From: Candidatus Sumerlaeia bacterium
GTDB lineage: Bacteria > Sumerlaeota > Sumerlaeia > SLMS01 > JAHLLQ01
DNA: 45,092 bases
NCBI GenBank assembly: GCA_033761985.1
Contig: JANRMB010000292.1
Coordinates: 1-45,092 of the forward strand
Direction: 5' to 3'
Below the pieces are notes generated by a model, which did not search any database, had not been told where the DNA came from, and was given only the letters and a program-made list of their open reading frames with translations. Made by a program: the position numbers and the translations under genes. This document shows, piece after piece, positions 10,692 to 33,825 of this stretch; position 1 is the stretch's first letter, and each line of letters opens with the position of its first letter.

Positions 10692-10734
10692 TTTTGCCAC
10701 CACGACCTTTCGCGCCACTCACCAGGAGATTTCC

Positions 10735-11205: not shown

Positions 11206-11244
11206 ACTCCTGAATCGTATGGATCAGATTTGTTGGAATCTTTC

Positions 11245-17390: not shown

Positions 17391-19208
17391 CTAGTTTTCA
17401 AGTTCCTCCCATTCTGAGGAATCTGCTGAAACAAAATCTCCGGAAATCAATAGTACATACTCCTGATTTCCATCTTCCAGTGTCCCCGTGTGCTCCACAC
17501 GGAGCCGAACCACTTGGGATGAACTTGTGGGCGCCCAGAAAATCTGTTCCACATTATCCCGCGTGTTTATTCCTTGGGTGGCGGAGAGGCTGGGGTTTGC
17601 AGGATCCAGAATCCAAGGCCTGAGTTCCTGACCCGATGGTGTAACCAACCCCACCAAATTGAGATCGTTCACTAGATTGGGCGTGGGATTATCGAGACCG
17701 GTTTGCTCCGTTCCGGCGGGATCCGTCCAACAGAGGGTAACCTTGAGCGGCTCGACATTACTGACCACAAAAACATAATCACGAAATGGCTGCACGGTGC
17801 TGAGTTCTCCCCGCCAAACGCCTGCTACTTCACCTGATATTGGCCACTCCGCATGGGCGTCTTCCAAGTAGCGAGCAGCTTGGAAAGCGTTCACCAATCC
17901 CCAACCGAACTCATAATCCGGGCCCACTCGCCCAAGGTCATCAGCTGTATGAATAATCAGCGCCTTCAGCCCTGCGGAAGTCATCATTTGGTTGTTCAGC
18001 CGAATAGCCCACTCCTGAAGCAACAACGCAGCCCCTGCCGTCGTGGGGGAGCTCATACTTGTACCGGAGATACTCCCATAACGATCATTCGCCTGTGAGA
18101 ATGTGGACAACAGCCCCACACCGTTTGCCACTACATCGGGCTTGATTCGACCATCATCCATTGGCCCCCAACCGGAGAAAGAAGACATCGTGGCTTTAGC
18201 CAAGTCTCGTGCTCCAGCAGTTACCGCATCATTAACGGCCCCCACTGTGAGAACATTTTTCCCCCCGTTGGAGCCGATCATCGTATCGTACCCGCCACGA
18301 CTAAAATCCGCCGGAGCATGGATGGCGGGATTGTATACTGCGGATTCCCAACCCGCACCCAACGCATCAAAATGCCAGAAGTTTGCACCCACCGCCGGAG
18401 CCGTATCATTCCGATCATTCCCCGCAGAAATCACCGGCAACCAATACGGATACTGAAAACACAAGCTGTCCCAATCCACCGCAATTGCCGTATACCGACC
18501 AAAATCCGGGTCCGTCAGATTCGTTACAAAATCCAACCAGTGAAATCCTGAAGTACCGGAGAAATTCACCCCGGATGTCCAACCCACGGCGTCGCCATAG
18601 GAGTGATTACTTACAGAAATCTTCAGTGTCCCCGTCACCATGTCATCCACCCCACTCACTGTATGCTGCACAATCTCACCAAAATCGTTGAAAAAATCCC
18701 CGGCAATGAGTTGCACCTCGGGAGCCATCCCTTTTGCCAACGGATTCACTCCAGCCGCTGAAAGCGTACCGGCTACGTGTGTGGCATGCAAATCCAAGGG
18801 GCTGATATCGATTGTGATGACCCTGCTCGTAAACTCTTGGTGAGTCTCCAGAATCCGACCACCATCCCAGATACCGAGATACAATCCTTCTCCATCCAAT
18901 GAGTAGGGTGCGGTTTGCCTGATTAGTTGAATGTTGGAGCTGATCGCGGCATTTTGATTGGTGGATTGGTAATAGATCGGTTTCCCATCAAAACCCACCA
19001 ACCCCCAGCTTGGTTCAAGATTCCCAGATTTATCATAGGTACCCGTTCCTCTAATGGGAACCCCAGCCTTTCTGGCCCAATCTTCTGCCTTTCCTTGTTG
19101 AGCTTCCTGATTTTGTACCACCGCCCTCGCGCCCGGTGGGGGAGCAGCAAATCCGGAGGTTGCCAACACAAGAAAGGCGGGTAGAAGAAAAACAGGCTTA
19201 AGGAGCAT
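17391..19208 (-). CDS. Secreted S8 (subtilase) serine protease A
   Basis: Signal peptide; catalytic WDGG (Asp), HATHVAGT (His), GTSMSSP (Ser); DDGRIKPD; C-terminal KVTLCWTDP...NDL...RDNVEQ beta domain. Confidence 0.93.
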   Translation of the reverse strand: MLLKPVFLLPAFLVLATSGFAAPPPGARAVVQNQEAQQGKAEDWARKAGVPIRGTGTYDKSGNLEPSWGLVGFDGKPIYYQSTNQNAAISSNIQLIRQTAPYSLDGEGLYLGIWDGGRILETHQEFTSRVITIDISPLDLHATHVAGTLSAAGVNPLAKGMAPEVQLIAGDFFNDFGEIVQHTVSGVDDMVTGTLKISVSNHSYGDAVGWTSGVNFSGTSGFHWLDFVTNLTDPDFGRYTAIAVDWDSLCFQYPYWLPVISAGNDRNDTAPAVGANFWHFDALGAGWESAVYNPAIHAPADFSRGGYDTMIGSNGGKNVLTVGAVNDAVTAGARDLAKATMSSFSGWGPMDDGRIKPDVVANGVGLLSTFSQANDRYGSISGTSMSSPTTAGAALLLQEWAIRLNNQMMTSAGLKALIIHTADDLGRVGPDYEFGWGLVNAFQAARYLEDAHAEWPISGEVAGVWRGELSTVQPFRDYVFVVSNVEPLKVTLCWTDPAGTEQTGLDNPTPNLVNDLNLVGLVTPSGQELRPWILDPANPSLSATQGINTRDNVEQIFWAPTSSSQVVRLRVEHTGTLEDGNQEYVLLISGDFVSADSSEWEELEN

Positions 19209-19298
19209 AAAGTCGACAAACAACGGCGAATCAAATACTGGAGAGTCTCGTCTTTCTTCGGTCGTTTGGCAACTCCAGCTTTCATCTCCTGCTGCAAC

Positions 19299-21131
19299 TT
19301 AATTCAAAGCTTCCCAATCTTCCACACTGGAATCGGTCGTGGAACCGGTGATGATCAGTGAGTACGCCTGTTCTTCATATTCCAGAGTGTTTTTGTGGCT
19401 TACAACGATTGTAACAAGGCCACCATCAGGAACTTCGTTGATCAACACTTGTTCCACGGTATCGACCACATTATCGCCAGTTGTGGCAAGTTCGGCGGGA
19501 TTTTCTGGGTCCAAAACATAAGGAAGATAAGTTTCTCCAGATTCCTCGGAATACACCCGAAGATCCAAATCATGCACCAGTGCGGGTGTGCGGTCATCCA
19601 ATCCCGTTTTTGCCTCACCAGCGGGGTCCGTCCAGCAAAGTGTTACTTTCAAAGGCTCTGTACCATTGAAGTAGAAAGTATAGTACTCCTCAGCAACGAA
19701 GGCGTCGAGTTTTCCAGTGATCAAGGAGGGTGTTTTGGGTTCGTTGTTTTGAAGAATCACATCACCGGCTCTTGAGGCATTCATCAGCCCCCAGCCGTTT
19801 TCATAGTCCGGGCCGGGGCGACCGATGTCACAAGTGGTGTGAATGATCAATCCCTTCAACATGGATGCGGGCATTGTTTTGCCATTTTCACGGCTGTACA
19901 AATCCTGAAGAAGCAACGCCGATCCGGCCGCATTTGGTGAAGACATACTGGTTCCGGAACCTACCGTGTAGGTATTGGTGGCATTCGAACGGATCGAGTA
20001 AATCGTCACACCATTGGCCACCACATCGGGTTTGATGCGACCATCATCCGTGGGGCCCCAACCGGAAAAGGCACTCATTTTTGCCATGGAGATGTCCCGA
20101 ACACCATTTTTCACCGCGTCGTCCACGGCACCGATTGTCATTACGTTTTTACCGGCACTTCCCCCAATTACCGTATCGAATCCTGATTTGCCAAAGTCTG
20201 CCATGGGGTGAATTGTGGGGTCGTAATTCGCTGAAACCCAGGAATACTCCACCGGATCAACATAATAGAACTTTGCTCCAGGAAGGGGAGCAGTGTCATC
20301 ACGGTCGTTCCCGGCAGACATAAAGGGAAGCCAGTAGGGATAAGCTTGGCAAAGGGCATCCCAATCGCGCGCCAGCGTATTATATTGGCCGAACTGAGGA
20401 TCAATTTGAGTGTCAATACTATGAATCCAGTGGTGACCCAAATTTCCCGAAAGGCTGACGTTTGCCATCCAACCACAGGTGGCCCCGTAGGAGTGATTGC
20501 TAATCGTCATTTTCCGGATGTTTTCCAGCGCCTGTGTTTCTGTTTGAGCAGCGTATTGGGGGATTTCAGTCATGTCAGAAATCAAATTGGCTGAAAGAAT
20601 CGTTGCTGCGGGAGCCATTCCTTTCGCCAAAGGATCAACACCCGTTGCCCCAATCGTTCCACCCACGTGACTGGAGTGAGCCTGAGCAGAGGAGCCATCC
20701 AGATTAATCACACGCCCCACCAATTCCTGATGGTTGCTATGCACCAAACCCGAGTCCCAAACTCCAATACTGAGTCCCTCTCCCGTAGCTCCAGCAGGTG
20801 CTTTCCCCCAGCTGGCATCGGCTGCGGTGGAAATCCCCGCATTCACATTATGAGTTTCATAGTACACGGGATATCCATCGGCCATCCCCATCAAAAACCA
20901 TGAACCAAGTAATCCCTTTTCCCCGTTATCTTTGGGGTTATGTGCCGTGGGGTATCCATTTTTGGAAGCCCAATCCTGCGCTTTGGCGAAGGATTGATTT
21001 TGATAAGCCCCAAGTGATTTAACGCTGGTGATCTGTTGAGGAGTTTCGGCGGATGATACGCCAGTGCTAAAGAATGTCAGCAGACTCATCACCAGAAGTG
21101 TTTTGTTTGTGGTGGGAAACAAAGTGTTCAT
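19299..21131 (-). CDS. Secreted S8 (subtilase) serine protease B, tandem paralog
   Basis: Signal peptide; WDSG, HSSHVGGT, GTSMSSP; DDGRIKPD; KVTLCWTDP; GGAG RBS upstream of ATG 21131. Confidence 0.93.
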   Translation of the reverse strand: MNTLFPTTNKTLLVMSLLTFFSTGVSSAETPQQITSVKSLGAYQNQSFAKAQDWASKNGYPTAHNPKDNGEKGLLGSWFLMGMADGYPVYYETHNVNAGISTAADASWGKAPAGATGEGLSIGVWDSGLVHSNHQELVGRVINLDGSSAQAHSSHVGGTIGATGVDPLAKGMAPAATILSANLISDMTEIPQYAAQTETQALENIRKMTISNHSYGATCGWMANVSLSGNLGHHWIHSIDTQIDPQFGQYNTLARDWDALCQAYPYWLPFMSAGNDRDDTAPLPGAKFYYVDPVEYSWVSANYDPTIHPMADFGKSGFDTVIGGSAGKNVMTIGAVDDAVKNGVRDISMAKMSAFSGWGPTDDGRIKPDVVANGVTIYSIRSNATNTYTVGSGTSMSSPNAAGSALLLQDLYSRENGKTMPASMLKGLIIHTTCDIGRPGPDYENGWGLMNASRAGDVILQNNEPKTPSLITGKLDAFVAEEYYTFYFNGTEPLKVTLCWTDPAGEAKTGLDDRTPALVHDLDLRVYSEESGETYLPYVLDPENPAELATTGDNVVDTVEQVLINEVPDGGLVTIVVSHKNTLEYEEQAYSLIITGSTTDSSVEDWEALN

Positions 21132-21913
21132 GGTGTTTTCTCCAATTGGATTTAAACCCATGGTAGAGAACTTCTTTTCCCCCAACAACTGTTTAATGAT
21201 TTACAAAAAAGTTACCTACCGCACTTCAAACCACCTAAAGTAGATAACAATCGTAGTTTAATATACAGCTTTTTCTCAACCCAACAGTTAACCATTATCT
21301 CACAATACAAAAATTCAAAAATTCGTGAATCAATAATCAGTTTTTTGAAAAATGCGAAGGATTAATTTCTCCAAGATTTTCAACCCAGCAGTTGTTCCTC
21401 ACAGAGCACACTTTTTTCTCCTGGCAGTTGAACAACCTTCTTCGATCAAAAATCGTCACATAACAAATCATGTTCAAGTTCTGAAGAAGTTCAATTTCTT
21501 CTCGAGATATAGAGTGCAAGTATAGCAATATCAGCAATCTAAAAAAACCTGAAGGAGTTACAAATCTGCAACCCCGTTATTCTTGGTGTTTTGTCTAGTT
21601 TTTGATTCGATTTCTCTCAATTTCCGCGGCCGTGGTTTTCTCGATCATTGACAACAAAATCCTGCATCAACTCTCCGTATGGAGGAGTATCAAGGACGCA
21701 TTTTGTACTATTTGAGGCTTTTGAAACGCATTATGACCAACTTCCAGTTCAGTGCAGCCACCAATAACTCAAAATCAGAATTTTCAAAGAAAAATACAGA
21801 AGCTTGCATCCGTGCCGGATAATATTTTTTTCAGACAGTAAAAATTATCTCCACAGATGAGGTTTTTTCAGGATTCCTTTCATCATCTGGATGAGAAAAA
21901 ACTGTTTCAGAAG

Positions 21914-22987
21914 TTATGATCGCTTCCCAAGATAAAACAAAACCAGCTCAATTGTAACCCCCGGACCGAATGCCATCCCCACCCAATAACCCGTCTTTTG
22001 TTGTTTCAGTATCTCGCTCAGCACAAAAAACAAAGTGGGTGACGACATATTTCCGTGGCTGCGAAGAACTTTCCAGGATGCTGCCAACCCCTTAGGCCCG
22101 CACCCCAACGCAGTTTCCACCGCCTCCAGGATTCTGGGGCCTCCGGGGTGCACCACCCATCCCGTAATCTGCTCCCGTTGAATCCCCCAACAAGCCAATT
22201 GCTCCTGAAGAATCCCATCCAGTGCACCCTCAATCAGACCCGGAACCTGATTGCTCAAGGTCATCCGAAATCCCGTATTCCCAATCAACCAGGTCATGGC
22301 GCTTTCGGAATTCGGAAGAAGAAACGACGCCGTCCCCCTTACTCTCAATCCAGCTTCTCCCAAGCCCACCACCAGTGCCGCAGCACCATCGCCGAACAAA
22401 ACGTTTGGCAACAGGTCATGCCTTCCTGAGCCGTATTGAAAATGAATGCTGCACAACTCCACACACACCAAAAGCACCAATCCCCCCGATTGCTGTGCAA
22501 GTCCTTGGGCCACTCGAAGCCCATTCACGCCGGCGTGGCAACCCATGAATCCCACGTGAACCCGTTCCACATTCTTCTGAAGTCCCAACCGTTGCACCAA
22601 CTCCGCATCCAAACCCGGTGCCATAAATCCTGTGCAAGATACCGTTACCAAATGCGTGATACTCGTGGGGTTTGACCCCGCATCTACCAGCGCATCCCTT
22701 GCGGCTTTTTCCGCCAACTCCGGAGCAAACTGTTGATACACTTTCATTCGCGCTTCAGTGCTGGGCGATGCCTCTGAATCTTCGTAAAACGGCCAGCGAC
22801 CTTCAGGATTCTGTTCCAGTACCACTCCTCGTTCCACTACTCCGGAATGCTCCACCGCCGCGTCAATCAATCCAACCAGGCGATCGCCCGCCCCAAGTAC
22901 GGCTTTCATCATTCTTCTGAAATCATCCGCCACCAAACGGTTTCGCCCGGTCGATAGACCCATCCCGATGATTCCCACATCACTCAT
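21914..22987 (-). CDS. Type III polyketide synthase (chalcone/stilbene synthase family)
   Basis: Catalytic triad contexts GFMGCHAG (Cys), VHPGG (His), HGNMSSPT (Asn); VSCTG, LFGDGAAA, FGPG; start trimmed to MSDVG to avoid overlapping the upstream gene. Confidence 0.94.
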   Translation of the reverse strand: MSDVGIIGMGLSTGRNRLVADDFRRMMKAVLGAGDRLVGLIDAAVEHSGVVERGVVLEQNPEGRWPFYEDSEASPSTEARMKVYQQFAPELAEKAARDALVDAGSNPTSITHLVTVSCTGFMAPGLDAELVQRLGLQKNVERVHVGFMGCHAGVNGLRVAQGLAQQSGGLVLLVCVELCSIHFQYGSGRHDLLPNVLFGDGAAALVVGLGEAGLRVRGTASFLLPNSESAMTWLIGNTGFRMTLSNQVPGLIEGALDGILQEQLACWGIQREQITGWVVHPGGPRILEAVETALGCGPKGLAASWKVLRSHGNMSSPTLFFVLSEILKQQKTGYWVGMAFGPGVTIELVLFYLGKRS

Positions 22988-23006
22988 TGGCTTTCCCCAG
23001 TCAAAT

Positions 23007-24101
23007 TCATCCCGTTTTCCCCACCCAGTGGCGGGCGTGTGAACTTGTACTGAGCAAGTTCCAGGCTGATGCTTGAAGAATTCGCCGATCCGCAAGAGCG
23101 CTCAGAAACGATGCCCAGCGTTGTTTTCTTCCGACTGAATGCTCCCAACGTCTCTGATAATCCGCTGCGGTATGATTGCCCCATCCCTCTCTCAGGGATT
23201 CTAAAGCACTTTCAGCAGATAACAGTGCCCAAGTCATCCCCTCACCGGTGATGGGTTCAACATACCCTGCCGAATCCCCGGCAAAGAGGATCCTTTCCCC
23301 CGATACCCGATTCAACCGCCGGGAAAGTTGCGGGGTGGTCTGCAAACTGTTCCATTCGGGATTCACTTTCGAAAGTCCGGCTGCATTGAGAGTTTTCTCC
23401 ACCAGAGTTGGGATGCCAACTGAGCGAATCGCTTCAGGAGTCGTTGCTGCAGCCAAATGAATTCCCTGCTCATGGGCCACCATCCCCAAGTAACCCCAAG
23501 GGGCGCAGATCATCCGGAATTCGGGAGCAACATCGCCAACGGCTTCCAAGGAAAAACCCAGCTTTGTTCTCCAGTATGTCGGTGATGTTTCCACCAACAC
23601 CCCTTCCCTTTTGGGAAGAATCCCTGCGAGACCTTCGCAACCTATAACCACACGCCCCAAAACAGTTTTGGATTCCTTGGCTTCCCCTTCCAGGTATTCA
23701 AGACTTCTCTGCTCTCCTTCCAACGCAATGTCCACCACCGCCACCCCTTCTCGAATCTCCACACCTTTGCTTCGAACGCGCTGCAGCAACGCCTCATCAA
23801 ACTCCCTCCGATCTACGAACTGATAAGGGGGACGAAGCGGAATACGTAGTGTACGCTTCCTTCCCAGTCGTTGAACATACGCGTCCTTCAGTGGGAAGGC
23901 GTAGGGCAAATCATCACCCATAAGACGAGACAATACCGCAACCCCTCTTGGGTTCAGGCAACCGCCGCACACTTTGGAACGCGGGAATTGTTTCTTTTCC
24001 AACAGAAGAACTTTCCACCCATACACTGCCAATCCATGGGCTATCACCAGCCCGGCCATTCCAGCTCCTACCACGATTGCATCGTAGAGTTGCTCAGCCA
24101 T
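23007..24101 (-). CDS. FAD-dependent oxidoreductase (geranylgeranyl reductase-like)
   Basis: VVGAGMAG Rossmann motif, FPRSKVCGGCL, RREFDEAL, GDSAGYVEPITGEGM; 8-nt overlap with the methyltransferase. Confidence 0.9.
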   Translation of the reverse strand: MAEQLYDAIVVGAGMAGLVIAHGLAVYGWKVLLLEKKQFPRSKVCGGCLNPRGVAVLSRLMGDDLPYAFPLKDAYVQRLGRKRTLRIPLRPPYQFVDRREFDEALLQRVRSKGVEIREGVAVVDIALEGEQRSLEYLEGEAKESKTVLGRVVIGCEGLAGILPKREGVLVETSPTYWRTKLGFSLEAVGDVAPEFRMICAPWGYLGMVAHEQGIHLAAATTPEAIRSVGIPTLVEKTLNAAGLSKVNPEWNSLQTTPQLSRRLNRVSGERILFAGDSAGYVEPITGEGMTWALLSAESALESLREGWGNHTAADYQRRWEHSVGRKQRWASFLSALADRRILQASAWNLLSTSSHARHWVGKTG

Positions 24102-24855
24102 CGAGGGGTTCACCCTGATTTTTCCACACCACAAACCATCGGCAGGGGAAGGCCGAGTACACCCGGGCGCCTTCCAGGCCAGCCTCTCTGAAAATCCGCC
24201 TTAGCTCACGCCGGGAAAACGCCCCTTGTACGGAAAGAGCACTGTCCACGTGGACCACTGGAGAACTGGTGAAGAGCCGTGCAGACAACCAAATCAACCA
24301 CCAATCCAGCCATCGGCGTCTCAGATCGCTGATGAGAATCAGTTTGGGATTCCGTGCTTTCCAATCCCGGAGGATTTTGATCAAATCCTCTTCGTCGAAA
24401 TGGTGGAATACGAGTGAACTGATGATCACATCCGGTTGCGGCGGAACAGCCTCAGGCCAATCCCCCAACAAATCCGCCACATGAAACCGCGTATCGGGCA
24501 AATGCCGAGTACCAGCGAACTGGGTCGCCGTACTGCTGATATCAAGCCCATGAAATTCCAGTCTTCCCCGTAAGGCCGAAGATAACCCGGCAATGAGATC
24601 GCCCCGCCCGCATCCCGCATCCACCAGCAACAACCGTCGCTTTTCCTTCTCCCACAATTTCCGGATCGGTTTCACAAAAACTCGGGAGGAGTTGCTCAGG
24701 CGATTCAGAGTGGCCAACCCTCGCAACGCCTGACGATGCATTTCCGGATCAAGCCCGGGGGTATCCATCCACTCAGGCACACGGCGCCGGCGTTTCAGCA
24801 CACCCGGAACCCACGGAATGATCGGTGTTTGGGAATGTTTCTGTTTGCTCAACAA
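24094..24855 (-). CDS. SAM-dependent methyltransferase
   Basis: EWMD, VDAGCGRGD motif I, SSLVFHHF, SDLRR, DSALSV...AFS; family typically found beside type III PKS; start uncertain. Confidence 0.88.
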   Translation of the reverse strand: MLSKQKHSQTPIIPWVPGVLKRRRRVPEWMDTPGLDPEMHRQALRGLATLNRLSNSSRVFVKPIRKLWEKEKRRLLLVDAGCGRGDLIAGLSSALRGRLEFHGLDISSTATQFAGTRHLPDTRFHVADLLGDWPEAVPPQPDVIISSLVFHHFDEEDLIKILRDWKARNPKLILISDLRRRWLDWWLIWLSARLFTSSPVVHVDSALSVQGAFSRRELRRIFREAGLEGARVYSAFPCRWFVVWKNQGEPLDG

Positions 24856-24936
24856 CTCCGCAACACTCCGGAAAAATCATTCAACAGCCCTACAACGGGC
24901 AAAAGATCACATCGCAACCAATTGCCAACAGGCAAT

Positions 24937-26712
24937 TCAATTTTGAAGACGCCACAAATCTGCAAACGCTCCGCCTTTTTGCAGAAGCTCCTCATGGGTG
25001 CCTTCCTCCAAAATGCGGCCTTTGCCGAGAACAATAATCCGGTTGGCGTGCCGTATAGTACTTAGCCTGTGGGCGATGATGAAAGTGGTGCGCCCTTTGG
25101 CCAATCTTAGGATGGCTTCCTGAACTTCTCTTTCTGTCTGCACATCCAGTGCCGAAGTTGCTTCGTCCAGAATAATCAACCGCGGATTTCGTGCAAAGGC
25201 GCGAGCAATCGCAACGCGCTGGCGTTGGCCACCGGAAAGGCTCATTCCACTTTCAGAAAGCCGCGTATGGATTCCCTGAGGAAGCTCCGAGACCACCTCC
25301 AACAGCGATGCAGCCTCCAACGCCTCCATCACTTCTTCATCAGTCAAGTGGGGAAGCCCATGAGCCACATTTTCTCTTAGGCTTCCGGAAAAGAGAAGCG
25401 GTTGCTGTGGCACCACAGCAATATGCCGACGAAACGTACGCATGTCCAACTGCTCCATGGGTACGCCGTCCAATAAAACACGGCCGTTTTGAGGGCGTCG
25501 AAAGCCTATCAGCAGACTCATAAGCGTCGTCTTTCCCGAGCCACTTTCGCCCACCAACGCAATTGTTTCCCCGGGTTGAACCCGCAAACTCAATCCCTTC
25601 AGAGTTGGCTCGTTGTCCTCAGGGTACGTGTACTCCACGGACTCAAACTCCACCGCACCATTCACCGATCCCACTCGTTCCTTCCCTTCGTTGCGTTCCA
25701 AGTCCGGGCATTCCAACACCTCGCCGATGGAGCGAAGAGACTCCATCCCACGGAAGGCAATCGGCACGGAGTTAATGATGCTTTCGATGCTCCCCACGAT
25801 CAAACCAAAGAAGCCCTGATACAACACCACCTCACCCACCGTGATGTACCCATGCCACGCAAAATAGGCGGAAACGGCCAGGGCATTCACCATAGAAAGC
25901 TGAAACGTTACCCAACTGCATGCCCCAAAAAGCGCGTTGAACTGATCCAAACGCTGGCCTTCCCGTTGAACGGAAGTGAACCGGGCGCCCAACTCTTCCT
26001 GAGTGTACTCCTCAACCCCGTGGGCCCGGGTAACGGGAATCATTTCAATCGATTCTGACACGCTCGCATTCATGGATTCCAGTTGGGTGCGATACGCCTC
26101 ATTTCGGGAGTTCATCGTCTTGCGAAAGAACCGGATCAACAATAGGCTCAAGGGCACCTGCAGAGCAAAAAAGCCCAGCATCAGGGGCTCCTGAATACTG
26201 GTGTAGAGAATCGCCACCAGCAGGTTGGTGATTGCCATGGGGGCAAACTGCGCCAAGTGGAAGCACATGGTTTGCAACTGCTCCACATCGCGCAAAATTT
26301 TGGACTGCAACTTCCCGGACTTGGTGGAATCCAAAAAGGAAAAGCTCAAGTGATGAAGCCGCGTCACCAGAGCCGCCCTTAACCGGGTCTCCATTTGACG
26401 AATATCACGACTAATCGATGTGAAGAAATACACCTGGAGGGGAATATTCATCGCCAAAAGCACAACCACACCCAACCCCAATCCCAGTAAGCCCGGGAGC
26501 TTGGCTGCGTCTGGGTTACCCAAAACATCAATCAGGTGTGCCACAAAAATGGGGAGCAACCAAACCGGCGAATGCTTAATGGTGTACACCACAAAAAGGA
26601 TACTGTACTCAACGGGGTTGAGTTTCAATAATCGGAAAAGGGTGCGGACCGGGTGAGTACTTCGGAAGTTTAATCCCAGAGGATCATCAGTGGTTGGCAA
26701 AGAAGCTTTCAT
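24937..26712 (-). CDS. ABC exporter, fused permease/ATP-binding protein
   Basis: N-terminal TM domain; GESGSGKT Walker A, LSGGQRQR signature, IILDEATSALD Walker B, AHRLST. Confidence 0.95.
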   Translation of the reverse strand: MKASLPTTDDPLGLNFRSTHPVRTLFRLLKLNPVEYSILFVVYTIKHSPVWLLPIFVAHLIDVLGNPDAAKLPGLLGLGLGVVVLLAMNIPLQVYFFTSISRDIRQMETRLRAALVTRLHHLSFSFLDSTKSGKLQSKILRDVEQLQTMCFHLAQFAPMAITNLLVAILYTSIQEPLMLGFFALQVPLSLLLIRFFRKTMNSRNEAYRTQLESMNASVSESIEMIPVTRAHGVEEYTQEELGARFTSVQREGQRLDQFNALFGACSWVTFQLSMVNALAVSAYFAWHGYITVGEVVLYQGFFGLIVGSIESIINSVPIAFRGMESLRSIGEVLECPDLERNEGKERVGSVNGAVEFESVEYTYPEDNEPTLKGLSLRVQPGETIALVGESGSGKTTLMSLLIGFRRPQNGRVLLDGVPMEQLDMRTFRRHIAVVPQQPLLFSGSLRENVAHGLPHLTDEEVMEALEAASLLEVVSELPQGIHTRLSESGMSLSGGQRQRVAIARAFARNPRLIILDEATSALDVQTEREVQEAILRLAKGRTTFIIAHRLSTIRHANRIIVLGKGRILEEGTHEELLQKGGAFADLWRLQN

Positions 26713-26723
26713 GATTTCATCAA

Positions 26724-26764
26724 CAAAAAAGAATCGTCCAAAAGTGCAGCACTTCCGGACGATT
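26724..26764 (-). terminator. Probable intrinsic terminator downstream of the metalloprotease gene
   Basis: Minus strand AATCGTCCGGAAGTG-CTG-CACTTTTGGACGATT hairpin followed by CTTTTTTG. Confidence 0.7.
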
Positions 26765-26786
26765 GCGTCGAACTAAACAGTTAAGG

Positions 26787-29696
26787 TTAACGGGATTCCA
26801 GAAATGAACCGTCGGGAGTTTCAAGAGTGTCGTCTTCGGCACCTGTAATAATCGTCAACGTGATTCCACCACCGCCAGAGTTCCCACCAAACTGAGTCAC
26901 CGCTTTGAGCGTGCTTTCAATCCGGGCATTGCTTTCCTGCAAATGGGCCAAGGTGTAGGGATCCAACCGTTGTTCTCCAACATCTTTCAACGCTTTGTTG
27001 ATGGATTGTTGAATCAACCGCAATTCCTGGTAAGCCAACGTACGAGCCACGCTGGGATACAAACTTTGCGTGGTGCTGTTGGTGATTTGAATCAATTGAG
27101 AAAGATGTGAACGCTGAAGATTGCGCCGCAGATTGCTCACCATGGGTTTGCGGTCGGTATAGGAGCCACTGTTTGACTTGATAACTTCGCTCCATATCGC
27201 CGTCCGCAGTGTGCTCATCAACTCTGGAAGCGTGAGCAGATCTGTTTTGGCGTCCACATGGAACTCCGCGTCGTACAAATACCGCACACGAGCGGGATTC
27301 AATAAGGAAAACAGCGCCTGATTCTGATGGAACAGAATACGATCCTGTACCGGATACGTCAGCGGATTGAGGAAATCATAGGAGCCCTCATGATACCAAC
27401 GTTCTGCAGAAAGGAACCTCATCACCTCGGGGTCCAGAACGATTGAATTCTCTTCAAAAGCCTGCTTCACAATAAATGCCAACGATGCCCGTTGTTCCGC
27501 GGCAGGAATCACCCGCACGGGAACATTCTCCGGGATTTTTCCTTTTTCATCCACCAACCGCACCGTACGGTTCAAATCATACCCGCCGATGTACTTGGAG
27601 GATTCCGTAACACCACGGAAGCGCTCAAACAGCAACAGATCAAATGCCTTCCGTGCACGGGCGTAGGTATCGCCCTTCTGCACGCTTACGTTGAGTAAAT
27701 CCGCCATAATCTTGTTGGAAATTTCTGCCCGTGCTTGGAAGAAGGCGACGGAATCCTTGGCTAAATCAAACCGCGTGATTCGTGGATCGGGTTCGCTCAC
27801 GTCTTCATCTGTTCCATATGCCAAGCCCGGCTCTTCAGACTTCGAGGCAATTTGCTCCAGCATTTTTTCTTCATTACTGGTCAAATCTCCAGAACCCGGA
27901 ACAGCATAACCGTAGGCAATCGCCCAGCGATCGTAAGGCCCAATGGTCGGAGTAATCCATGATTTGGGATACGTTCCATCAGCCCGAAGAACAAAGGGGA
28001 GATAATCCATCACCGATCCCGCCGTGGGGACGGTGGGGTCTGCTTCCAGAGAAATCTCTTCAAACGTTTTCCAGGAACTCCCTTTGAAGTTATGCCGCAA
28101 TCCCAACGAGTGACCCATCTCGTGAGCCACGATATAGCGAATCAATGGACCAATAAACTCCTCCGGCCATTCACCGAAGGGATTCTCCTCTTCTTTTTTG
28201 TTCTCGTCTTTCTTCTCCCCATCTTTGTCTTCCCCTTCCTTTTTTTCTTCCTCTGTCCCTGTGGAAGGAGTCTCAGCGCTGTCACCATCTGCCGCACGAG
28301 TAGCATTGAACATCAACCCAAGGGAGTGCAGCGCTAATTCCGATTGGAAATGAGAACCAATACTACAGAATTGATGACCCGCATGATCCTCCTGCATGGA
28401 CATACCGCCCCGGAGAACATCCTCGGCAAACAACTGTTCCGGGGTCTTGTTCTTCAATCCCTTTTGCTCAATCTCCAAGCTGTATCGCAGACTTAACTCA
28501 AACCAGTTTGGATGCATTTCGGGATTGCGGGCAAGCCAGTGGCGCACCATCGGCGGGTAATCTGAGTACGCCGTTTGTGAGTTTACAAATAAATCAAAGT
28601 CTTCCACAAATGCCCGAACCATCGACTCATCAAACAAGATATCGGAGTCCAAAATCTGTCCGGTGCGGGGATCCACACGGCTCGGAGCAATCGCGAAGGC
28701 CCGCTGAGAGGTAATCCAACGGAAGAAATTGTAGCGTGAATCCTCCGGATCGAAATCCGCAAACTGGTTGGTTTCTGTTTGCTGGCGCACTTCGATCGCG
28801 TCCACGAAACCAATTTCCTCAAATGCCTCGTTCCAAACTTCAATTCCTTCACGCACCCAGCGACGATACTTGATGGGCACTCCGCTTTCGATGTAGAATA
28901 CGATGGGTTCTTTGGGTGGGGAAAGGCTCAGGCTGGGGTCTTGTTTTTCCAAATGCCAACGATTGATTTTGCGTTCGAAAGTGCTGGGGGCGCGTTCGTC
29001 AGCCGAGAAGTTATTTTGCGCCGTAAGAAAATAGCCAACACGTTCATCAGCTTTTCGTGGTTTGTACCCAGTTGAGGGGAGCTTACCAATATTGAAGTAA
29101 ATCCCGACGGTTTGATTCCGATCCCGAAAGATCAACTCCACAATCGTGTTATCAGGGAAGGATTTGGCGCGGTTGATTTGCACGATTGTATTCGGAAGCC
29201 GTGCACGAAGAAAATCCCCGGCCTGCCCCTGAAGAAGAGCCTTCAAATCAAACAAAACGTCGCCGTTGGAGGACTCTGCCAAGATCGGGAAGCGAGCCAG
29301 AACGGCATCCGGGTAGCTTTTTTCAACAATCGGTTTCAGCCCACCCTCAGCCGTGAAGAAGATATTCGGCTGAATCAACAGCAAATCCTTCCCGCGGCGT
29401 TCAAACTTCAGCAACAAATCCGTTGTCTGCAAACCCGCCAATTGCCCCTTGGATAGGCTTGTGGCGATGAGGAATTCCGAACCAATCTGGCCGCCCTTCA
29501 GGCGAACCAATAACTCGTCCTCTTCGGCTTTCTGAAACAGGGTAAAGAAGCCTTCAATTTCTTTGAACCCCTTTGTCTTTTCCGCAATTTCCGGAAGTTT
29601 ATCCTTTTCCTCTTGGGCATTGGCCGGTGAATTCAACGCCAGCACCATGATTAGACCCAACAAAACGGTGAAAAACTTGCTCTTTATACTCAACAT
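26787..29696 (-). CDS. Secreted zinc-dependent metalloprotease (DUF5117/DUF5118/EcxA-like)
   Basis: Signal peptide ending ANA-Q; PRKADERVGYF, INRWHLEK, PIVFYI, DPRTGQIL, HEMGHSLGLRHNF, SVMDY, GPYDRWAIAYGY; start moved to MLSIKS because the longer ORF overlaps ispH. Confidence 0.9.
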   Translation of the reverse strand: MLSIKSKFFTVLLGLIMVLALNSPANAQEEKDKLPEIAEKTKGFKEIEGFFTLFQKAEEDELLVRLKGGQIGSEFLIATSLSKGQLAGLQTTDLLLKFERRGKDLLLIQPNIFFTAEGGLKPIVEKSYPDAVLARFPILAESSNGDVLFDLKALLQGQAGDFLRARLPNTIVQINRAKSFPDNTIVELIFRDRNQTVGIYFNIGKLPSTGYKPRKADERVGYFLTAQNNFSADERAPSTFERKINRWHLEKQDPSLSLSPPKEPIVFYIESGVPIKYRRWVREGIEVWNEAFEEIGFVDAIEVRQQTETNQFADFDPEDSRYNFFRWITSQRAFAIAPSRVDPRTGQILDSDILFDESMVRAFVEDFDLFVNSQTAYSDYPPMVRHWLARNPEMHPNWFELSLRYSLEIEQKGLKNKTPEQLFAEDVLRGGMSMQEDHAGHQFCSIGSHFQSELALHSLGLMFNATRAADGDSAETPSTGTEEEKKEGEDKDGEKKDENKKEEENPFGEWPEEFIGPLIRYIVAHEMGHSLGLRHNFKGSSWKTFEEISLEADPTVPTAGSVMDYLPFVLRADGTYPKSWITPTIGPYDRWAIAYGYAVPGSGDLTSNEEKMLEQIASKSEEPGLAYGTDEDVSEPDPRITRFDLAKDSVAFFQARAEISNKIMADLLNVSVQKGDTYARARKAFDLLLFERFRGVTESSKYIGGYDLNRTVRLVDEKGKIPENVPVRVIPAAEQRASLAFIVKQAFEENSIVLDPEVMRFLSAERWYHEGSYDFLNPLTYPVQDRILFHQNQALFSLLNPARVRYLYDAEFHVDAKTDLLTLPELMSTLRTAIWSEVIKSNSGSYTDRKPMVSNLRRNLQRSHLSQLIQITNSTTQSLYPSVARTLAYQELRLIQQSINKALKDVGEQRLDPYTLAHLQESNARIESTLKAVTQFGGNSGGGGITLTIITGAEDDTLETPDGSFLESR

Positions 29697-29792
29697 CACT
29701 CTGGATAGGCTCCCGGTAATCAATTGAACTGGGGGAAGATGGCGGAACTTCATGCCAAACCCAAGACCTTTTCCATCAGGCCAACAAAAATC

Positions 29793-31016
29793 ATGACGGA
29801 ATCGAAAACCTACTACAAAGCCAGTTTGGGACTCAAAAATGAGATCGTCGGTCTCGTGCAGGAGGATTACTCCAGCGATTTTGTCCTCCATCTGAAAAAT
29901 CAGGCTGATGGAATGCATTTCCCCAGTGCGAATTGTATCGCGTTTCTTGCCAAAGAGTTTGGCTTTTGCTATGGGGTGGACAAAGCGATCGACCTCGCCT
30001 ATGAGGCACGTCGAAAATTTCCAGAAAAACGAATCTTCCTCCTCACCGAAATCATTCACAACCCCCGTGTTAATCAGCGCCTGGTGGACATGGGGTTCGT
30101 TTTTCTTTCCGGGCAATACCAGCACCCGACGCTTACCAAGTCCGACATCACGGCGGAGGACGTTGTCCTGATTCCCGCTTTCGGAACAGCCGCTTCAGAC
30201 TTTGAGTTTCTTCGTTCCAAAGGGTGTATCATCGTCGATACCACCTGCGGGAGTGTGGTTCATGTTTGGAAACGCGTGGAAAAGTACGCCCGGGAAGGTT
30301 TTACCTCTCTGGTGCACGGCAAGTTCTACCATGAGGAAACAATCGCCACTGTTTCCATGGCGGCCAAAGAAGGCGGACACTACCTCGTGGTCAGAAACCA
30401 TGCCCAAGCGGATATCGTGATCGATTTTCTTCTTGGAAAACTGACCGGCGCCGAACTCCTCACCAAGTTTGATCCTCAAGCCTACTCCCATGGATTCAAT
30501 CCCGAACAACACCTAAACAAGATGGGTGTTGCCAACCAGACGACCATGCTTGCCAGTGAATCGCTGGAAATCGCCGCCAGAATTGGCGATGCAATCGCCC
30601 AGCGCGACGGTGCCCTTTCCCGTAACGAGGCGACCAACTTTCGTAGCTTCGACACTATTTGTAGTGCCACACAAGACCGTCAGGATGCCGTCAAATCCCT
30701 CCTCGCCAACTCCTCACTGGATCTCATGATCATCGTGGGTGGGTACAACTCTTCGAACACAACCCACCTACTGAGCGTCTCACAAGAATTCTGCCCCGCC
30801 TATCATATCGACGACTCCACCGAGATTCTCTCCTCCTCGGAGATTCTTCATCTCCCGTACGGCGCTGCGGAACCCGTGGTCTCCACGCCCTGGATTCCGC
30901 AAGTGGGGGAGCGTCCCCTGCGCGTGGGTTTCACTGCCGGTGCCAGCACCCCCAACAAAGTCATTCACGACGTGGTGAAACGGTTCGTGGAGATCCGTGG
31001 GGGCACTCTCAGCTAA
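29793..31016 (+). CDS. ispH: 4-hydroxy-3-methylbut-2-enyl diphosphate reductase
   Basis: FGFCYGV, EIIHNP, AFG, DTTCGSV, HEET, NQTTM, DTICSATQDRQ, GGYNSSNT, TAGASTP. Confidence 0.96.
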   Translation: MTESKTYYKASLGLKNEIVGLVQEDYSSDFVLHLKNQADGMHFPSANCIAFLAKEFGFCYGVDKAIDLAYEARRKFPEKRIFLLTEIIHNPRVNQRLVDMGFVFLSGQYQHPTLTKSDITAEDVVLIPAFGTAASDFEFLRSKGCIIVDTTCGSVVHVWKRVEKYAREGFTSLVHGKFYHEETIATVSMAAKEGGHYLVVRNHAQADIVIDFLLGKLTGAELLTKFDPQAYSHGFNPEQHLNKMGVANQTTMLASESLEIAARIGDAIAQRDGALSRNEATNFRSFDTICSATQDRQDAVKSLLANSSLDLMIIVGGYNSSNTTHLLSVSQEFCPAYHIDDSTEILSSSEILHLPYGAAEPVVSTPWIPQVGERPLRVGFTAGASTPNKVIHDVVKRFVEIRGGTLS

Positions 31017-31019
31017 AGT

Positions 31020-31655
31020 TTATACTCCATCCACATACCCGATGCCCGGGCCGAGAAGCAGAATATTCCCGGTGCTCACCGTGCCATTGGTGGGATCATA
31101 CACATCAAACTTGTCGAATTGTGAACCCGTTCCTCCCAAACCACCAGCCGTTCCGGCAGGCCCTCGGGAACGCAACAACCACTCGCTTTGTTGATACTGT
31201 GTCCCCCATAAATCACGGTATACATTGCGACCATTATCCCCACCGCTCAAGGCCTCGGTTACCCACTGAACGTATGTGCGGCGATCCACGTAAATCGGAA
31301 CTCGAATATCCTTGTCCGGGTAAATGTTGGATGTATCCCGACTGAAGATATCCGGAGGGACACTCGTGATATACGTGATTGGAGTGCTCAATGGTGCAAA
31401 ACGTTGGATGCGGGGATCCAGCGCTGTATCCACAGCCACATAGGAAATAGGGTACTTATTGTTATCCACAAAATAGCTTTCCAAAGCCGTCGCTACGGTG
31501 CGCATATCGGCTTTTGTGCGGCTGACTTTGCTGCGTGTTTGCGCTTCCAAAAAGTTGGGTACTGCAATAGCTGCAAGAATGGCAATAATCGCCACTACAA
31601 TAAGCAGTTCAATTAACGTGAAGGCTTTGAAAAATGTGCTCTCTCTCATATTCAT
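31020..31655 (-). CDS. Prepilin-type N-terminal cleavage/methylation (GspG-like pseudopilin) protein
   Basis: KA|FTLIELLIVVAIIAILAAIAVPNF type III signal peptide; ALESY..D...YP, SRGP and YDPTNGTVS motifs. Confidence 0.92.
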   Translation of the reverse strand: MNMRESTFFKAFTLIELLIVVAIIAILAAIAVPNFLEAQTRSKVSRTKADMRTVATALESYFVDNNKYPISYVAVDTALDPRIQRFAPLSTPITYITSVPPDIFSRDTSNIYPDKDIRVPIYVDRRTYVQWVTEALSGGDNGRNVYRDLWGTQYQQSEWLLRSRGPAGTAGGLGGTGSQFDKFDVYDPTNGTVSTGNILLLGPGIGYVDGV

Positions 31656-31661
31656 GTCCTT

Positions 31662-32414
31662 TTAGGAGCCTGTAAAGGCCCAGAGTGATGTAGTGCTTTC
31701 AGGGGCCAACGAACGAATCGTCAGCTTGGGTCTAAGAGCTGGATCTTGTGCTTCCGATGACCAAAAACGCCGAGCATTCCGCGCAACGGCTTCCGGGCCG
31801 ATCAACATCCAACCATGATTTTCCTCCGGATTGTTGCTCCATTCCTCCAGATCACGTGCTAGGTCTTCAGATTTGAACGTATAGATATTATTTTCTTGGC
31901 GTACATCATCCCATCGATTCACAGGAACGCTTGCTGAAGGGCTGGTGAGAAAGTCTCCACCAGCAATTGCCCACTGCTGCGTACCGAAAGCGGAGTGCGT
32001 CCACGTGGCATCCCCTGGTTCAGCCGGTTCACCCAATCCTCCCACATTCACATCCGTGGTGGCAACATCACCCTCTCCCCAAGCGGTTGTAACTCGGTGA
32101 AGAGAGAAAACATCTCCATTCGGCGCAAACAAACCGGAGCGATCCAATACCAGAGACACTTCCACCTCCCAAGGTTTTGGAGGAAGTGAAACGTTGCTCA
32201 GATCAAAGGCGATCAACCCACGGCGAACGCTGTTGACGGTGGCTCCGGAAAAAATGAGGGCAAACCCTCCGTTGGAATTCTCTGGACGGTCGGCATAAAG
32301 TGTTGCATCCCGGGTTCCTTCGTAGCTCCCCTGTCCCTGCTGAAGAACGAGTTCCATGGCTGAAACTGAATTCAAAAAAAAGGGACAGAGGAGCAGATGA
32401 AGGGTCCTTTTCAT
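31662..32414 (-). CDS. Secreted DNRLRE/CBM96-like domain protein
   Basis: Signal peptide; RDATLY...N.GG, RGLIAFDL, LHRVTTAWGEG, ATW, GGDF, NHGWML, SSE...RPKL pattern. Confidence 0.78.
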   Translation of the reverse strand: MKRTLHLLLCPFFLNSVSAMELVLQQGQGSYEGTRDATLYADRPENSNGGFALIFSGATVNSVRRGLIAFDLSNVSLPPKPWEVEVSLVLDRSGLFAPNGDVFSLHRVTTAWGEGDVATTDVNVGGLGEPAEPGDATWTHSAFGTQQWAIAGGDFLTSPSASVPVNRWDDVRQENNIYTFKSEDLARDLEEWSNNPEENHGWMLIGPEAVARNARRFWSSEAQDPALRPKLTIRSLAPESTTSLWAFTGS

Positions 32415-32437
32415 GGGATAAAGGCTTGAGGTTATCC

Positions 32438-33781
32438 TTATTGATAACTCATCCAACCAGCGGGGTTGGCTGAGGCCGATCCTTGGATGATTGGTATCTT
32501 CAGGTAATCGGGTTGAATCACATCACGATAAACATCGGAACCAAAAATGGGCCGGGCATCACAACCGAGCCACGCTTCCACCACATACGAGTAAATGGAG
32601 CGGAAGTCCACATCATGACGAAGATTACCCCGCTGAAGATTAGCGAGATTGGGCTGGCCACCATAAACTCCGCCGGCCACGCGCCCGCCAAACATCATCA
32701 GCGAGTTCGCTGCACCGTGGTCTGTCCCCAAGCTGGAATTCTCTTCCACACGGCGACCAAACTCGGAGAATGTCATGATTAATACCCGATCCAGATTTCC
32801 TGTGGCTTCCATTTCATCCAGAAAAGCTGAAACGCTGTTACCGAAGTTGGTCAACAACCTTGGGTGATTTCCGCGCACCGTGGGGTCGGCATCAATCACC
32901 TGGTTCGCATGGGTATCGAAGCCCCCTTGGCGAACGTAAAAGATTCGGGTTTTGAAGCCCGAGCGAATCACCTTGCTGGCCAGCTGCAATCCACGCCCCA
33001 AGGAATCGTTGGAATAGGAACCGTCCGGGGCAATATCGGTTGCAGCGTTTGCCACGGCGATATCCTCAATGGATGCCTCCATGATATTCTCACTGCGTTG
33101 AACGAAATCCAACACGGAGTCCACCACAGGCGCTCTGTTCAGGTTTGTGATTGCCGCAAGCCGGAGATCCTCATCCGTATTCCCAAACAAACGATAGTTT
33201 TCCGGATTGTTTACGGAAGCGGGAGTGTAGTAGTCCGCCCGTTCAAAAGTCTGGGGGACACGTGTCGTCCCTGTCCCAAGGAAAAACAGAGACTCCTCCG
33301 GAAGCTGGCAACCGCAGGCGTTATCGTACAATTTCGCCACCCACCCTTTGCGGTCGCGCGCCTGACCGGGAACATAACCATGTTCAAAGTATTCCATGCT
33401 GGTGAAGTGGGAAAGGTTGGGATTCACATAACCTACATTCTGAATCACTCCAAACTGGCCGTTCTGATACCGATCGGCCAGTCTAACCATTGCCGGGTGC
33501 ATACTATTTAATGCATCCATGGTAATAGCTTGATTGCGCAAAATACCCAGATTGGGTCGCGCGGCATAGTACAACGGATCAGTGGAGGGGATGATGGTAT
33601 TGAGTCCATCATTACCCCCGGCAAGTTGGATGAGCACCAGAATTCGATCCTCGTTTAGGCAACCGGCTTGGTTCAATGCCATGGCGCTGCGCATAATCCA
33701 ATTCGGGGTGGTGTTTTCCAAGGTAAAGAAGGCCAGAGAGCCCAAGCTGGCTTGTAGAAAGCCTCGACGGGAAACCGCCAT
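32438..33781 (-). CDS. DUF1501 domain protein with Tat signal
   Basis: SRRGFLQ twin-arginine motif; QLAGGNDGLN, NLSHF, GGFDTHANQ, FSEFGRR, GTDHG, VDFRSIY. Confidence 0.92.
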   Translation of the reverse strand: MAVSRRGFLQASLGSLAFFTLENTTPNWIMRSAMALNQAGCLNEDRILVLIQLAGGNDGLNTIIPSTDPLYYAARPNLGILRNQAITMDALNSMHPAMVRLADRYQNGQFGVIQNVGYVNPNLSHFTSMEYFEHGYVPGQARDRKGWVAKLYDNACGCQLPEESLFFLGTGTTRVPQTFERADYYTPASVNNPENYRLFGNTDEDLRLAAITNLNRAPVVDSVLDFVQRSENIMEASIEDIAVANAATDIAPDGSYSNDSLGRGLQLASKVIRSGFKTRIFYVRQGGFDTHANQVIDADPTVRGNHPRLLTNFGNSVSAFLDEMEATGNLDRVLIMTFSEFGRRVEENSSLGTDHGAANSLMMFGGRVAGGVYGGQPNLANLQRGNLRHDVDFRSIYSYVVEAWLGCDARPIFGSDVYRDVIQPDYLKIPIIQGSASANPAGWMSYQ

Positions 33782-33825
33782 AATGTTTCTTTCTCCAGAG
33801 AGATATCGTGTCGAAGGGTGGTGGG

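Follow-up and report, generated by a model that had tools for sequence, protein, structure and literature searches.

A short C-terminal tryptophan tail on unrelated exported proteins of Sumerlaeota: a candidate lineage-specific sorting tag

Why should exported proteins of unrelated folds end in the same few residues? The question is raised by a 45,092-nt stretch of DNA from a Candidatus Sumerlaeia bacterium (the window, hereafter), which is contig C292 of a 3.71-Mb genome (372 contigs, 90.5% complete; called G000). Four proteins encoded in it, the subtilases S8-A and S8-B, a DNRLRE-domain protein and a DUF1501 protein, carry a short C-terminal tail centred on a Trp residue (the W tail). The original prediction, made from the sequence alone, took this tail for a modular secretion or surface-attachment tag, possibly read by a machine like that of type II secretion (T2SS). 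Our analysis supports a modular tag on unrelated exported proteins: the motif is commoner in exported than in cytoplasmic proteins, and homologues from elsewhere end otherwise. Judging from the sequences, the tail is very probably a localisation tag of some kind, for secretion or for anchoring. The narrower reading, a lineage-specific modular C-terminal tag for the export or surface sorting of Sec- or Tat-exported proteins in Sumerlaeota (class Sumerlaeia), is the one we favour, with a little more than even confidence. That pseudopilins or a T2SS-like machine read the tail is suggested by gene adjacency and is, in our opinion, a real but doubtful possibility.

To place the window proteins in their genomic context, genes were called with a dicodon model of our own (2799 genes) and signal peptides with heuristics of our own, without a benchmarked predictor. 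Of the 2581 proteins with a length of 100 aa or more, 75, 52 and 55 have Trp at positions -4, -5 and -6, respectively, against 23-45 at the other positions from -1 to -20. A Trp-anchored position matrix, iterated, converged on 33 proteins (the carriers), with the consensus P-[ST]-[SN]-V-[ED]-[DNS]-W-x-[MLV]-[YHF]-x0-2-COOH. After the Trp come 3 residues in 10 carriers, 4 in 14 and 5 in 9, and over the nine residues that precede the core S (3.1x), T (2.3x), P (2.2x) and A (1.7x) are over-represented. The motif initially described, W-x-x-[LY] with the Trp 5-6 residues from the end, has therefore to be redrawn: the Trp lies at -4 to -6 and the core is rather V-x-[DN]-W-x-hydrophobic-[YHF]. In a leave-one-out scoring, 30 of the 33 tails reached at least 12 bits, among 268 Trp located 3-7 residues from a C-terminus, whereas only 10 of 13,266 internal Trp did so, i.e. 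a separation of more than 100-fold.

An enrichment of the motif in exported proteins had been anticipated, and it was found. Trp at -5 or -6 is present in 37 of 394 predicted exported proteins versus 41 of 1426 predicted cytoplasmic ones (odds ratio (OR) 3.5, p 3e-7); there was no enrichment in exported proteins of Trp at the control positions -10 to -13 and -20 to -23. The contrast is conservative, since the cytoplasmic set keeps carriers whose 5' ends were lost at contig edges. A profile hidden Markov model of the tail (A1), run on the six-frame translation of the genome, recovered the same set plus two further tails in gene fragments at contig ends. Codon identity at the shared tail residues was 0.39, against 0.35 expected from codon usage; being so near to expectation, it suggests that the likeness of the tails is held at the protein level and that no DNA cassette has spread recently.

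The carriers are diverse. Twenty-four of them pass the strict rule for a Sec or Tat signal, four more have signal-like N-termini and five are cut by contig ends; none (0/33) has a lipobox. A BLAST threshold of 1e-5 links just three of them, the other 30 being unrelated to any other carrier. The families recognised by Pfam include S8, M14 carboxypeptidase and C25 peptidases, a protein-arginine deiminase (PAD), an endonuclease I with an LTD domain, a GH16 with a CBM6, a glucose/sorbosone dehydrogenase (GSDH) and DUF1501. Beside them are found LTD, FG-GAP, Laminin_G_3, SdrD_B and ice-binding-like adhesin domains and an RTX repeat protein, while 9 of the 31 carriers encoded outside the window belong to no Pfam family.

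Where the tail sits was read from domain boundaries and from one structural model. The last Pfam domain stops 15-18 residues short of the C-terminus in the PAD, C25 and GSDH carriers, and the tag would therefore be the last ~15 residues and not a hidden domain. The window DUF1501 protein was modelled with AlphaFold2 (72-row alignment, mean predicted local distance difference test (pLDDT) score of 83); the model is confident to about residue 430, and the confident part of the fold ends about 17 residues before the C-terminus. Confidence is 63 and 50 in the last two blocks and below 50 at residues 436-439, with a short helix at 440-446; the tail of this protein is thus modelled as a flexible, low-confidence appendage. 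No hydrophobic stretch or TM (transmembrane) helix follows the Trp in any of the 33 tails, which all end 3-5 residues past it, as expected from the original description. No model covers the tail, either in Pfam (35 proteins) or, at E<=1, in NCBIfam (13 of the 35). Two other sources of similarity, a shared hidden C-terminal domain and a DNA cassette, were rejected, as the domain boundaries, the BLAST comparisons and the codon identity speak against them.

Is the tail conserved outside this genome? S8 homologues were collected at 20 loci in related genomes. Of the 16 complete ones, 13 have a Trp 3-6 residues from the end, followed by a hydrophobic residue (e.g. SSVNDWRDLE, PSGVSDWFVVE, TSSVTDWEAFE and PAGYWIVY). 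One of the others ends in …NAWQ and two have no such tail. The homologues vary in length from 599 to 1104 residues, and the tail persists past 120-420 extra intervening residues that belong to different domains. A same-genus orthologue of S8-B (L033, G001:C78:5582-7375) is interrupted by a single in-frame TAG, some 20 codons ahead of where the tail is expected; a sequencing error or a pseudogene could account for it.

The search was extended to a collection of 57 Sumerlaeota genomes at least 85% complete, 55 of which are in one class. Over these 55, profile A1 gave matches in 28 at E<=0.05. Directly after the best 20 matches outside G000 came a stop codon in 16 cases and one extra residue in two; the remaining two were non-terminal. 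As the profile is blind to stop codons, the finding of true C-termini at 18 of the 20 is an independent confirmation of the tail. In its canonical form for the class, the tail reads PPxSVx[DN]W-x-hydrophobic-Y-COOH. A broader profile (A2) matched 26 of the 57 genomes at E<=0.01, distributed by family as follows: f1 6/8, f2 7/8, f6 1/1, f7 9/10, f15 1/4 and f16 1/4. At the same threshold this insensitive profile gave zero matches in f4, f5, f9-f14, f17 and f18. S8 orthologues with visible tails are nevertheless present in two of these profile-negative families (G013 in f4 and G030 in f10), which makes presence or absence by family unreliable. In three genomes labelled Kiritimatiellae/PVC, which have S8 genes 43% identical, the profile gave 0, 1 (weak and non-terminal) and 0 matches. 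On protein homology G000 itself was assigned to Sumerlaeota and not to Kiritimatiellae: its Rho is 87% identical to one labelled Sumerlaeia and 68-80% identical to others labelled Candidatus Sumerlaeia, Sumerlaeota or Sumerlaeaceae, and one of its pseudopilins shares 68% identity with a Sumerlaeia-labelled protein.

The strongest functional evidence for a tag is what replaces the tail in homologues. A full HMMER search of 1.84 billion representatives was made with the DNRLRE protein, and the best 150 matches were retained, 86 of which are small (<=400 aa). Their endings differ directly past the conserved domain end, RPxLxIxY. A W tail is present in 21 of the 86 (e.g. RPRLTIDYTPPPAGVDAWSLY and RPQLQVTYQVPVSVSDWDVY). 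At the same position, Pfam modules were found in others: Por_Secre_tail in 6, CHU_C in 1, Dockerin_1 in 5, PEP-CTERM in 3 and IPTL-CTERM in 2. A further 18, detected with a regular expression, end with an uncharged stretch (TM helix) followed by a basic cluster, and the rest include proteins that stop at the domain end. The picture given by DUF1501 was similar. Among its best 120 homologues, 39 have a W tail (28 of them within the best 40), about 19 have a Dockerin_1 according to precomputed Pfam annotation, TM-like ends are seen in five and the ending …PAGCAMP in six; those labelled Fuerstiella, Pirellulaceae and Phycisphaerales, i.e. Planctomycetes, stop at the domain end. As a background value, the W-tail regular expression matches 30 of the 1426 cytoplasmic proteins of G000. 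P0041 (DUF1501) and P0518 (DNRLRE), the sole W-tailed homologues to have a name, are labelled Sumerlaeia. Homologues from elsewhere thus do not end in a W tail as a part of the domain: they stop, or carry a dockerin, a PEP-CTERM, an IPTL-CTERM or the C-terminal domain (CTD) used in type IX secretion (T9SS). The W tail is thus interchangeable with known C-terminal sorting or anchoring modules and is part of neither the DNRLRE nor the DUF1501 domain; swapping of this kind is what marks a modular tag for sorting or anchoring.

One oddity emerged from this comparison. In the metagenomic DUF1501 homologues P0075, P0078, P0085, P0090, P0096 and P0099, the ending …(P/V)AGCAMP(A) comes after a Gly/Glu-rich low-complexity stretch. 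It is another recurrent C-terminus, matched to no known signal.

What could read such a tail? When the genes within four positions of the carriers were clustered, one recurrent family came out, that of the GspG-like pseudopilins (8 genes). G000 has about 40 of them (39 by genome search, 40 by phmmer), together with 14 T2SSE-like ATPases and 6 secretins over the Pfam cut-off, of which four stand outside any recognisable operon while a Tad cluster and a PilMOQ cluster include one each. Adjacency was then defined as directly neighbouring, co-directional and less than 300 nt apart, with the 40 phmmer-defined pseudopilins. Six of the 33 carriers have a pseudopilin neighbour. Among other genes this is the case for 31 of 2726 (OR 19, p 3e-6), and among the other exported proteins for 5 of 360 (OR 16, p 8e-5). 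With S8-A and the DNRLRE protein added, the figure is 7 of 35 carriers, and the pseudopilin gene is upstream in four pairs and downstream in three. The arrangement was seen again in 4 of 20 loci fetched from other families, two of which have the pseudopilin stop abutting the carrier start; two or three carriers follow each other in several of the 20. In three further f7 genomes, 3 of 27 weaker matches (E<=0.3) have a co-directional pseudopilin gene about 100 nt away, for ~0.3 expected (hand-read coordinates). A pair formed by a Laminin_G_3 carrier and a pseudopilin is kept between f1 and f7, the carriers being 49% identical. The T2SS-like reader of the original prediction is therefore upheld in one respect, cargo genes do adjoin GspG-like pseudopilin genes; that the machine reads the tail is what this adjacency would suggest.

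Other machines were looked for in G000. There were no matches to exosortase (PF09721, in a genome 90.5% complete) or to PEP-CTERM (PF07589, a model which matched no control genome either). Por_Secre_tail (PF18962) was found neither in the six-frame translation, nor in 31 carriers, nor in the four window proteins. Exosortase was detected in 7 of the 57 genomes of the phylum: all five of f13, which show no tails at E<=0.01, and two f7 genomes that have tails. A strict complementarity between tail and exosortase was therefore rejected, being partial only: f5, f9-f12 and f14 show neither, and two f7 genomes show both. The type-IV-filament inventory of G000 is unusually large for a 3.7-Mb genome (e.g. 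contigs C22, C240, C298, C236, C84, C165 and C258).

The window genes (Table 1) can now be set against the genome-wide motif. The four tails were found exactly as they had been quoted, and the family assignments proved right, Pfam giving Peptidase_S8 twice and DUF1501, and NCBIfam the DNRLRE domain. By inspection of the translations, an N-terminal signal is present on all four proteins, as had been claimed: three are Sec-like (S8-A, S8-B and the DNRLRE protein) and the DUF1501 protein has a Tat motif, SRRGFLQ. S8-B probably starts at the Met at residue 20. As S8-A is a paralogue of S8-B (47% identity), the window provides three independent carriers, not four. As for the four tails being one motif, this holds clearly for S8-B and DUF1501 (23.6 and 22.0 bits on the ungapped genome-wide matrix), whereas the other two are degenerate. 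The DNRLRE protein scores merely 2.9 bits, and S8-A, which has no Val at W-3, is in neither of the two matrix lists (matches of at least 8 bits; weak scores of 0-16 bits). S8-A retains, however, D-S-S…E-W-E-x-L, and a DNRLRE homologue in genome G052 (34% identity) ends in RPSLTITFTPPSSVNNWSVY where the window protein has RPKLTIRSLAPESTTSLWAFTGS. Both proteins are tail members by descent despite their weak scores. The pseudopilin gene, on the same strand as the DNRLRE gene and 6 nt downstream of it, ends a four-gene run, DUF1800-DUF1501-DNRLRE-pseudopilin, of which DUF1800, the usual partner of DUF1501, is the first gene. The same order is found in a genome of the same family (G006), where the tails are …RPAAWNAYR and, for the DNRLRE orthologue, …PAEEWVAIF.

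Table 1. Features of the window, in order of position
Feature	Coordinates (strand)	Assignment	C-terminus	Remarks
Ser/Thr protein kinase gene	4551-6974			Flanks the PF00502 pair
Phycobilisome-protein matches	7803-11205 (+)	PF00502, globin-like: 181 aa (E 4e-13) and 962 aa (E 5e-7)
Ser/Thr protein kinase gene	11230-13083			Flanks the PF00502 pair
Membrane protein gene	13524-16433 (+)	No Pfam match at E<=1e-5		969 aa, multi-pass, large soluble C-terminal part
S8-A subtilase gene	17391-19223 (-)	Peptidase_S8, E 2e-35	…VSADSSEWEELEN	Degenerate tail coded 17394-17432
S8-B subtilase gene	19299-21188 (-)	Peptidase_S8, E 9e-29	…TTDSSVEDWEALN	Tail coded 19302-19340
Polyketide synthase gene run	21914-26712 (-)	Chalcone/stilbene synthase domains in the type III polyketide synthase		Co-directional genes, see text
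Met-zincin, longest open reading frame	26787-30125 (-)	DUF4953/DUF5117		True start probably near 29666
ispH	29724-31016 (+)
GspG-like pseudopilin gene	31020-31655 (-)	N_methyl + T2SSG domains
DNRLRE-domain protein gene	31662-32456 (-)	DNRLRE_dom (NCBIfam), E 2.2e-11	…PESTTSLWAFTGS	264 aa; degenerate tail coded 31665-31703 (…RPKLTIRSLAPESTTSLWAFTGS); likely start 32414
DUF1501 gene	32438-33871 (-)	PF07394, E 3e-25	…SASANPAGWMSYQ	Tail coded 32441-32479; likely start 33781
DUF1800 gene	33826-35418 (-)	PF08811, E 2e-76	…TVPEYQTK	No W tail

We propose the following scheme. The tag would consist of a flexible linker rich in S, T, P and A, then V-x-[DN]-W-x-hydrophobic-[Y/H/F] with no more than two residues after it. 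A tagged protein would cross the inner membrane by Sec or Tat, as predicted from the N-termini, and fold in the periplasm with its tail exposed, as the DUF1501 model and the domain boundaries suggest. The tail, near the free carboxyl end, might then be bound by a component of a type-IV-filament (T2SS-like) machine. Given the gene adjacency, the likeliest binder would be one of the ~40 GspG-like pseudopilin paralogues, often encoded beside the cargo. The cargo would finally pass a secretin to reach the cell surface or the medium, so that outer-membrane passage, or retention, would be directed by the tail. Put at its boldest, the scheme would make the W tail the first linear, transplantable signal for secretion by, or docking to, a type-IV-filament (T2SS-like) machine, with the pseudopilin paralogues as adaptors or filament subunits: each would capture W-tailed cargo by the C-terminal peptide, for passage through the secretin or for display on a surface filament. 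We consider this version unlikely.

Several observations weigh against a tag read by pseudopilins, or against its generality. The spread of 3-5 residues after the Trp argues against a strict, one-register reading of the carboxyl end. Only about 18% of the carriers are beside a pseudopilin gene, and four out of five have no such neighbour. Every one of the 57 Sumerlaeota genomes has an expanded set of pseudopilin genes (15 to more than 50 each), including those of families without detected tails, and pseudopilins alone do not predict the tag. A special subfamily of carrier-adjacent pseudopilins was sought and rejected: they form no clade, the 7 rows giving 6 changes, as shuffles do (bootstrap unsettled). 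A reader of the GspC or PDZ type was likewise rejected, there being no GspC-type domain (PF11356) in G000 and no PDZ protein in the neighbourhoods of its secretins; no canonical T2SS operon is tied to the cargo. Outside G000 the profile detects 0-5 tails per genome at E<=0.01, which leaves the range and the copy number elsewhere uncertain. Finally, the gene and signal-peptide calls are the product of our own heuristics.

The explanation that competes best with this scheme is retention in the manner of a dockerin. The proteins would be exported by another route and the tail would bind non-covalently a surface scaffold (cohesin-like, S-layer, outer-membrane protein or glycan), keeping enzymes and adhesins on the cell without acting as a translocation signal. 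The dockerins found at the tail position in both sets of homologues speak for it. So does the cargo, of a kind commonly displayed at the cell surface (proteases, nuclease, glycosidase with a CBM, FG-GAP and LTD adhesin-like proteins), and a short exposed tail with two aromatic or hydrophobic anchors, the Trp and the residue at +3, would suit a peptide ligand. We nonetheless rate retention as unlikely: no candidate receptor was identified, PEP-CTERM and the T9SS CTD are true sorting signals and replace the tail as frequently as dockerin, and the adjacency to pseudopilin genes is left unexplained. This last objection falls if the filament is itself the scaffold, in which case retention merges with the scheme proposed above.

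It is quite improbable that the tail is a ligand of a periplasmic PDZ-type protease or chaperone, such as the single S41 C-terminal processing peptidase or a DegP/DegQ-like protein, with a role in maturation, activation or quality control. PDZ-domain ligands end in hydrophobic or aromatic residues; the motif, which lies within five residues of the free C-terminus, does end in this way, and G000 has one S41 peptidase gene. S41 peptidases are, however, nearly universal (they were matched in 10 of 14 control genomes) and the tail is lineage-restricted. The variable carboxyl-end register does not suit such a ligand either, the swapping with PEP-CTERM, T9SS CTD and dockerin points to localisation, and the pseudopilin adjacency would remain unexplained. 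That the tail has no function, and results from chance, C-terminal compositional bias, paralogue descent or the last strand of a common domain, is scarcely credible. In its favour are the weakness of two of the window's four tails, the paralogy of S8-A and S8-B and the post hoc definition of the motif, but this explanation is contradicted by the enrichment in exported proteins, by the separation of C-terminal from internal Trp, by the lack of relatedness of 30 of the 33 carriers, by the true C-termini found with a stop-blind profile in other genomes, and by the position of the tail directly after catalytic domains, with no shared domain detected by Pfam.

Some features of the window and of the genome stand apart from the tail. 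The genome is non-cyanobacterial and has, in the window, two matches to a phycobilisome-protein family, between two Ser/Thr protein kinase genes. A co-directional run encoding a type III polyketide synthase, a flavin adenine dinucleotide-dependent oxidoreductase, an S-adenosylmethionine methyltransferase and an ATP-binding cassette exporter looks like a small alkylresorcinol/pyrone-type cluster. The longest open reading frame of the Met-zincin overlaps the start of ispH by ~400 nt, but its signal peptide (MLSIKSKFFTVLLGLIMVLALNSPANAQ) starts ~150 codons in, which is why we place the true start further downstream (Table 1). The C-termini of G000 show a second peculiarity: Pro is the last residue in 57 of the 394 predicted exported and 81 of the 1426 cytoplasmic proteins, far above the usual share, and no further motif common to the Pro-ending proteins of this genome was evident.

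C-terminal sorting signals define the surface or secreted proteome of whole phyla, and LPXTG, PEP-CTERM and the T9SS CTD each led to a dedicated machine. The candidate described here is unusually small, has no membrane anchor and occurs in a candidate phylum, Sumerlaeota, of which we know no cultured member. It would permit listing the exoproteome of these bacteria from sequence (proteases, nuclease, glycosidase, adhesin-like proteins), and it offers a testable handle on the role of their many pseudopilin paralogues. If pseudopilins do act as adaptors, both their expansion in Sumerlaeota and the recognition of folded substrates would be explained. If a short peptide suffices for outer-membrane passage, this would bear on substrate recognition by T2SS-type machines and might provide a secretion tag; as the linear signal of a T2SS-like machine, the tag could be categorically new.

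How does the W tail compare with known systems? Like those of the PEP-CTERM/exosortase, LPXTG-sortase, GlyGly-CTERM-rhombosortase and IPTL-CTERM systems, it is a modular C-terminal tag on unrelated signal-peptide proteins of one lineage, and PEP-CTERM and IPTL-CTERM occupy its very position in DNRLRE homologues. Unlike PEP-CTERM, it has neither TM helix nor basic cluster, and G000 has no exosortase. The T9SS CTD (Por_Secre_tail, PF18962/TIGR04183) likewise marks Sec-exported folded proteins for a step beyond the periplasm, and its cargo families overlap with those of the W tail (C25, PAD, S8, adhesin-like); it is, however, a folded domain of ~75-100 residues, whereas the W tail is a linear peptide of ~12-15 residues. 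Dockerin is also a C-terminal add-on without TM segment on secreted enzymes, but it is a calcium-binding domain of ~60-70 residues with a known partner fold, and Pfam found neither dockerin (PF00404) nor a cohesin family in the carriers. Like the substrates of the T2SS, the W-tail cargo is predicted to be exported by Sec or Tat and would be in a folded state, and G000 has secretins, ATPases and pseudopilins. A canonical T2SS has one major pseudopilin, against ~40 here with no GspC domain, and no linear secretion signal is known to us for T2SS substrates. The C-terminal ligands of PDZ domains (the outer-membrane protein (OMP) C-termini sensed by DegS, the substrates of Prc/Ctp) and the OMP beta-signal are short, extreme C-terminal and aromatic or hydrophobic, as is the W tail. 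Neither PDZ ligands nor OMP signals are known to have the upstream S-V-x-[DN] part; unlike proteins with an OMP beta-signal, the carriers are, by Pfam, soluble enzymes or adhesin-like proteins and not beta-barrels, and only 10 of the 33 end at W+3. We found no description of such a tail in the literature, supplements and subscription journals aside, nor in the available parts of PMC8092238 and PMC10866078. By analogy, the tag resembles PEP-CTERM, the T9SS CTD and dockerin in role and belongs to none of these systems; it would be a new C-terminal sorting signal.

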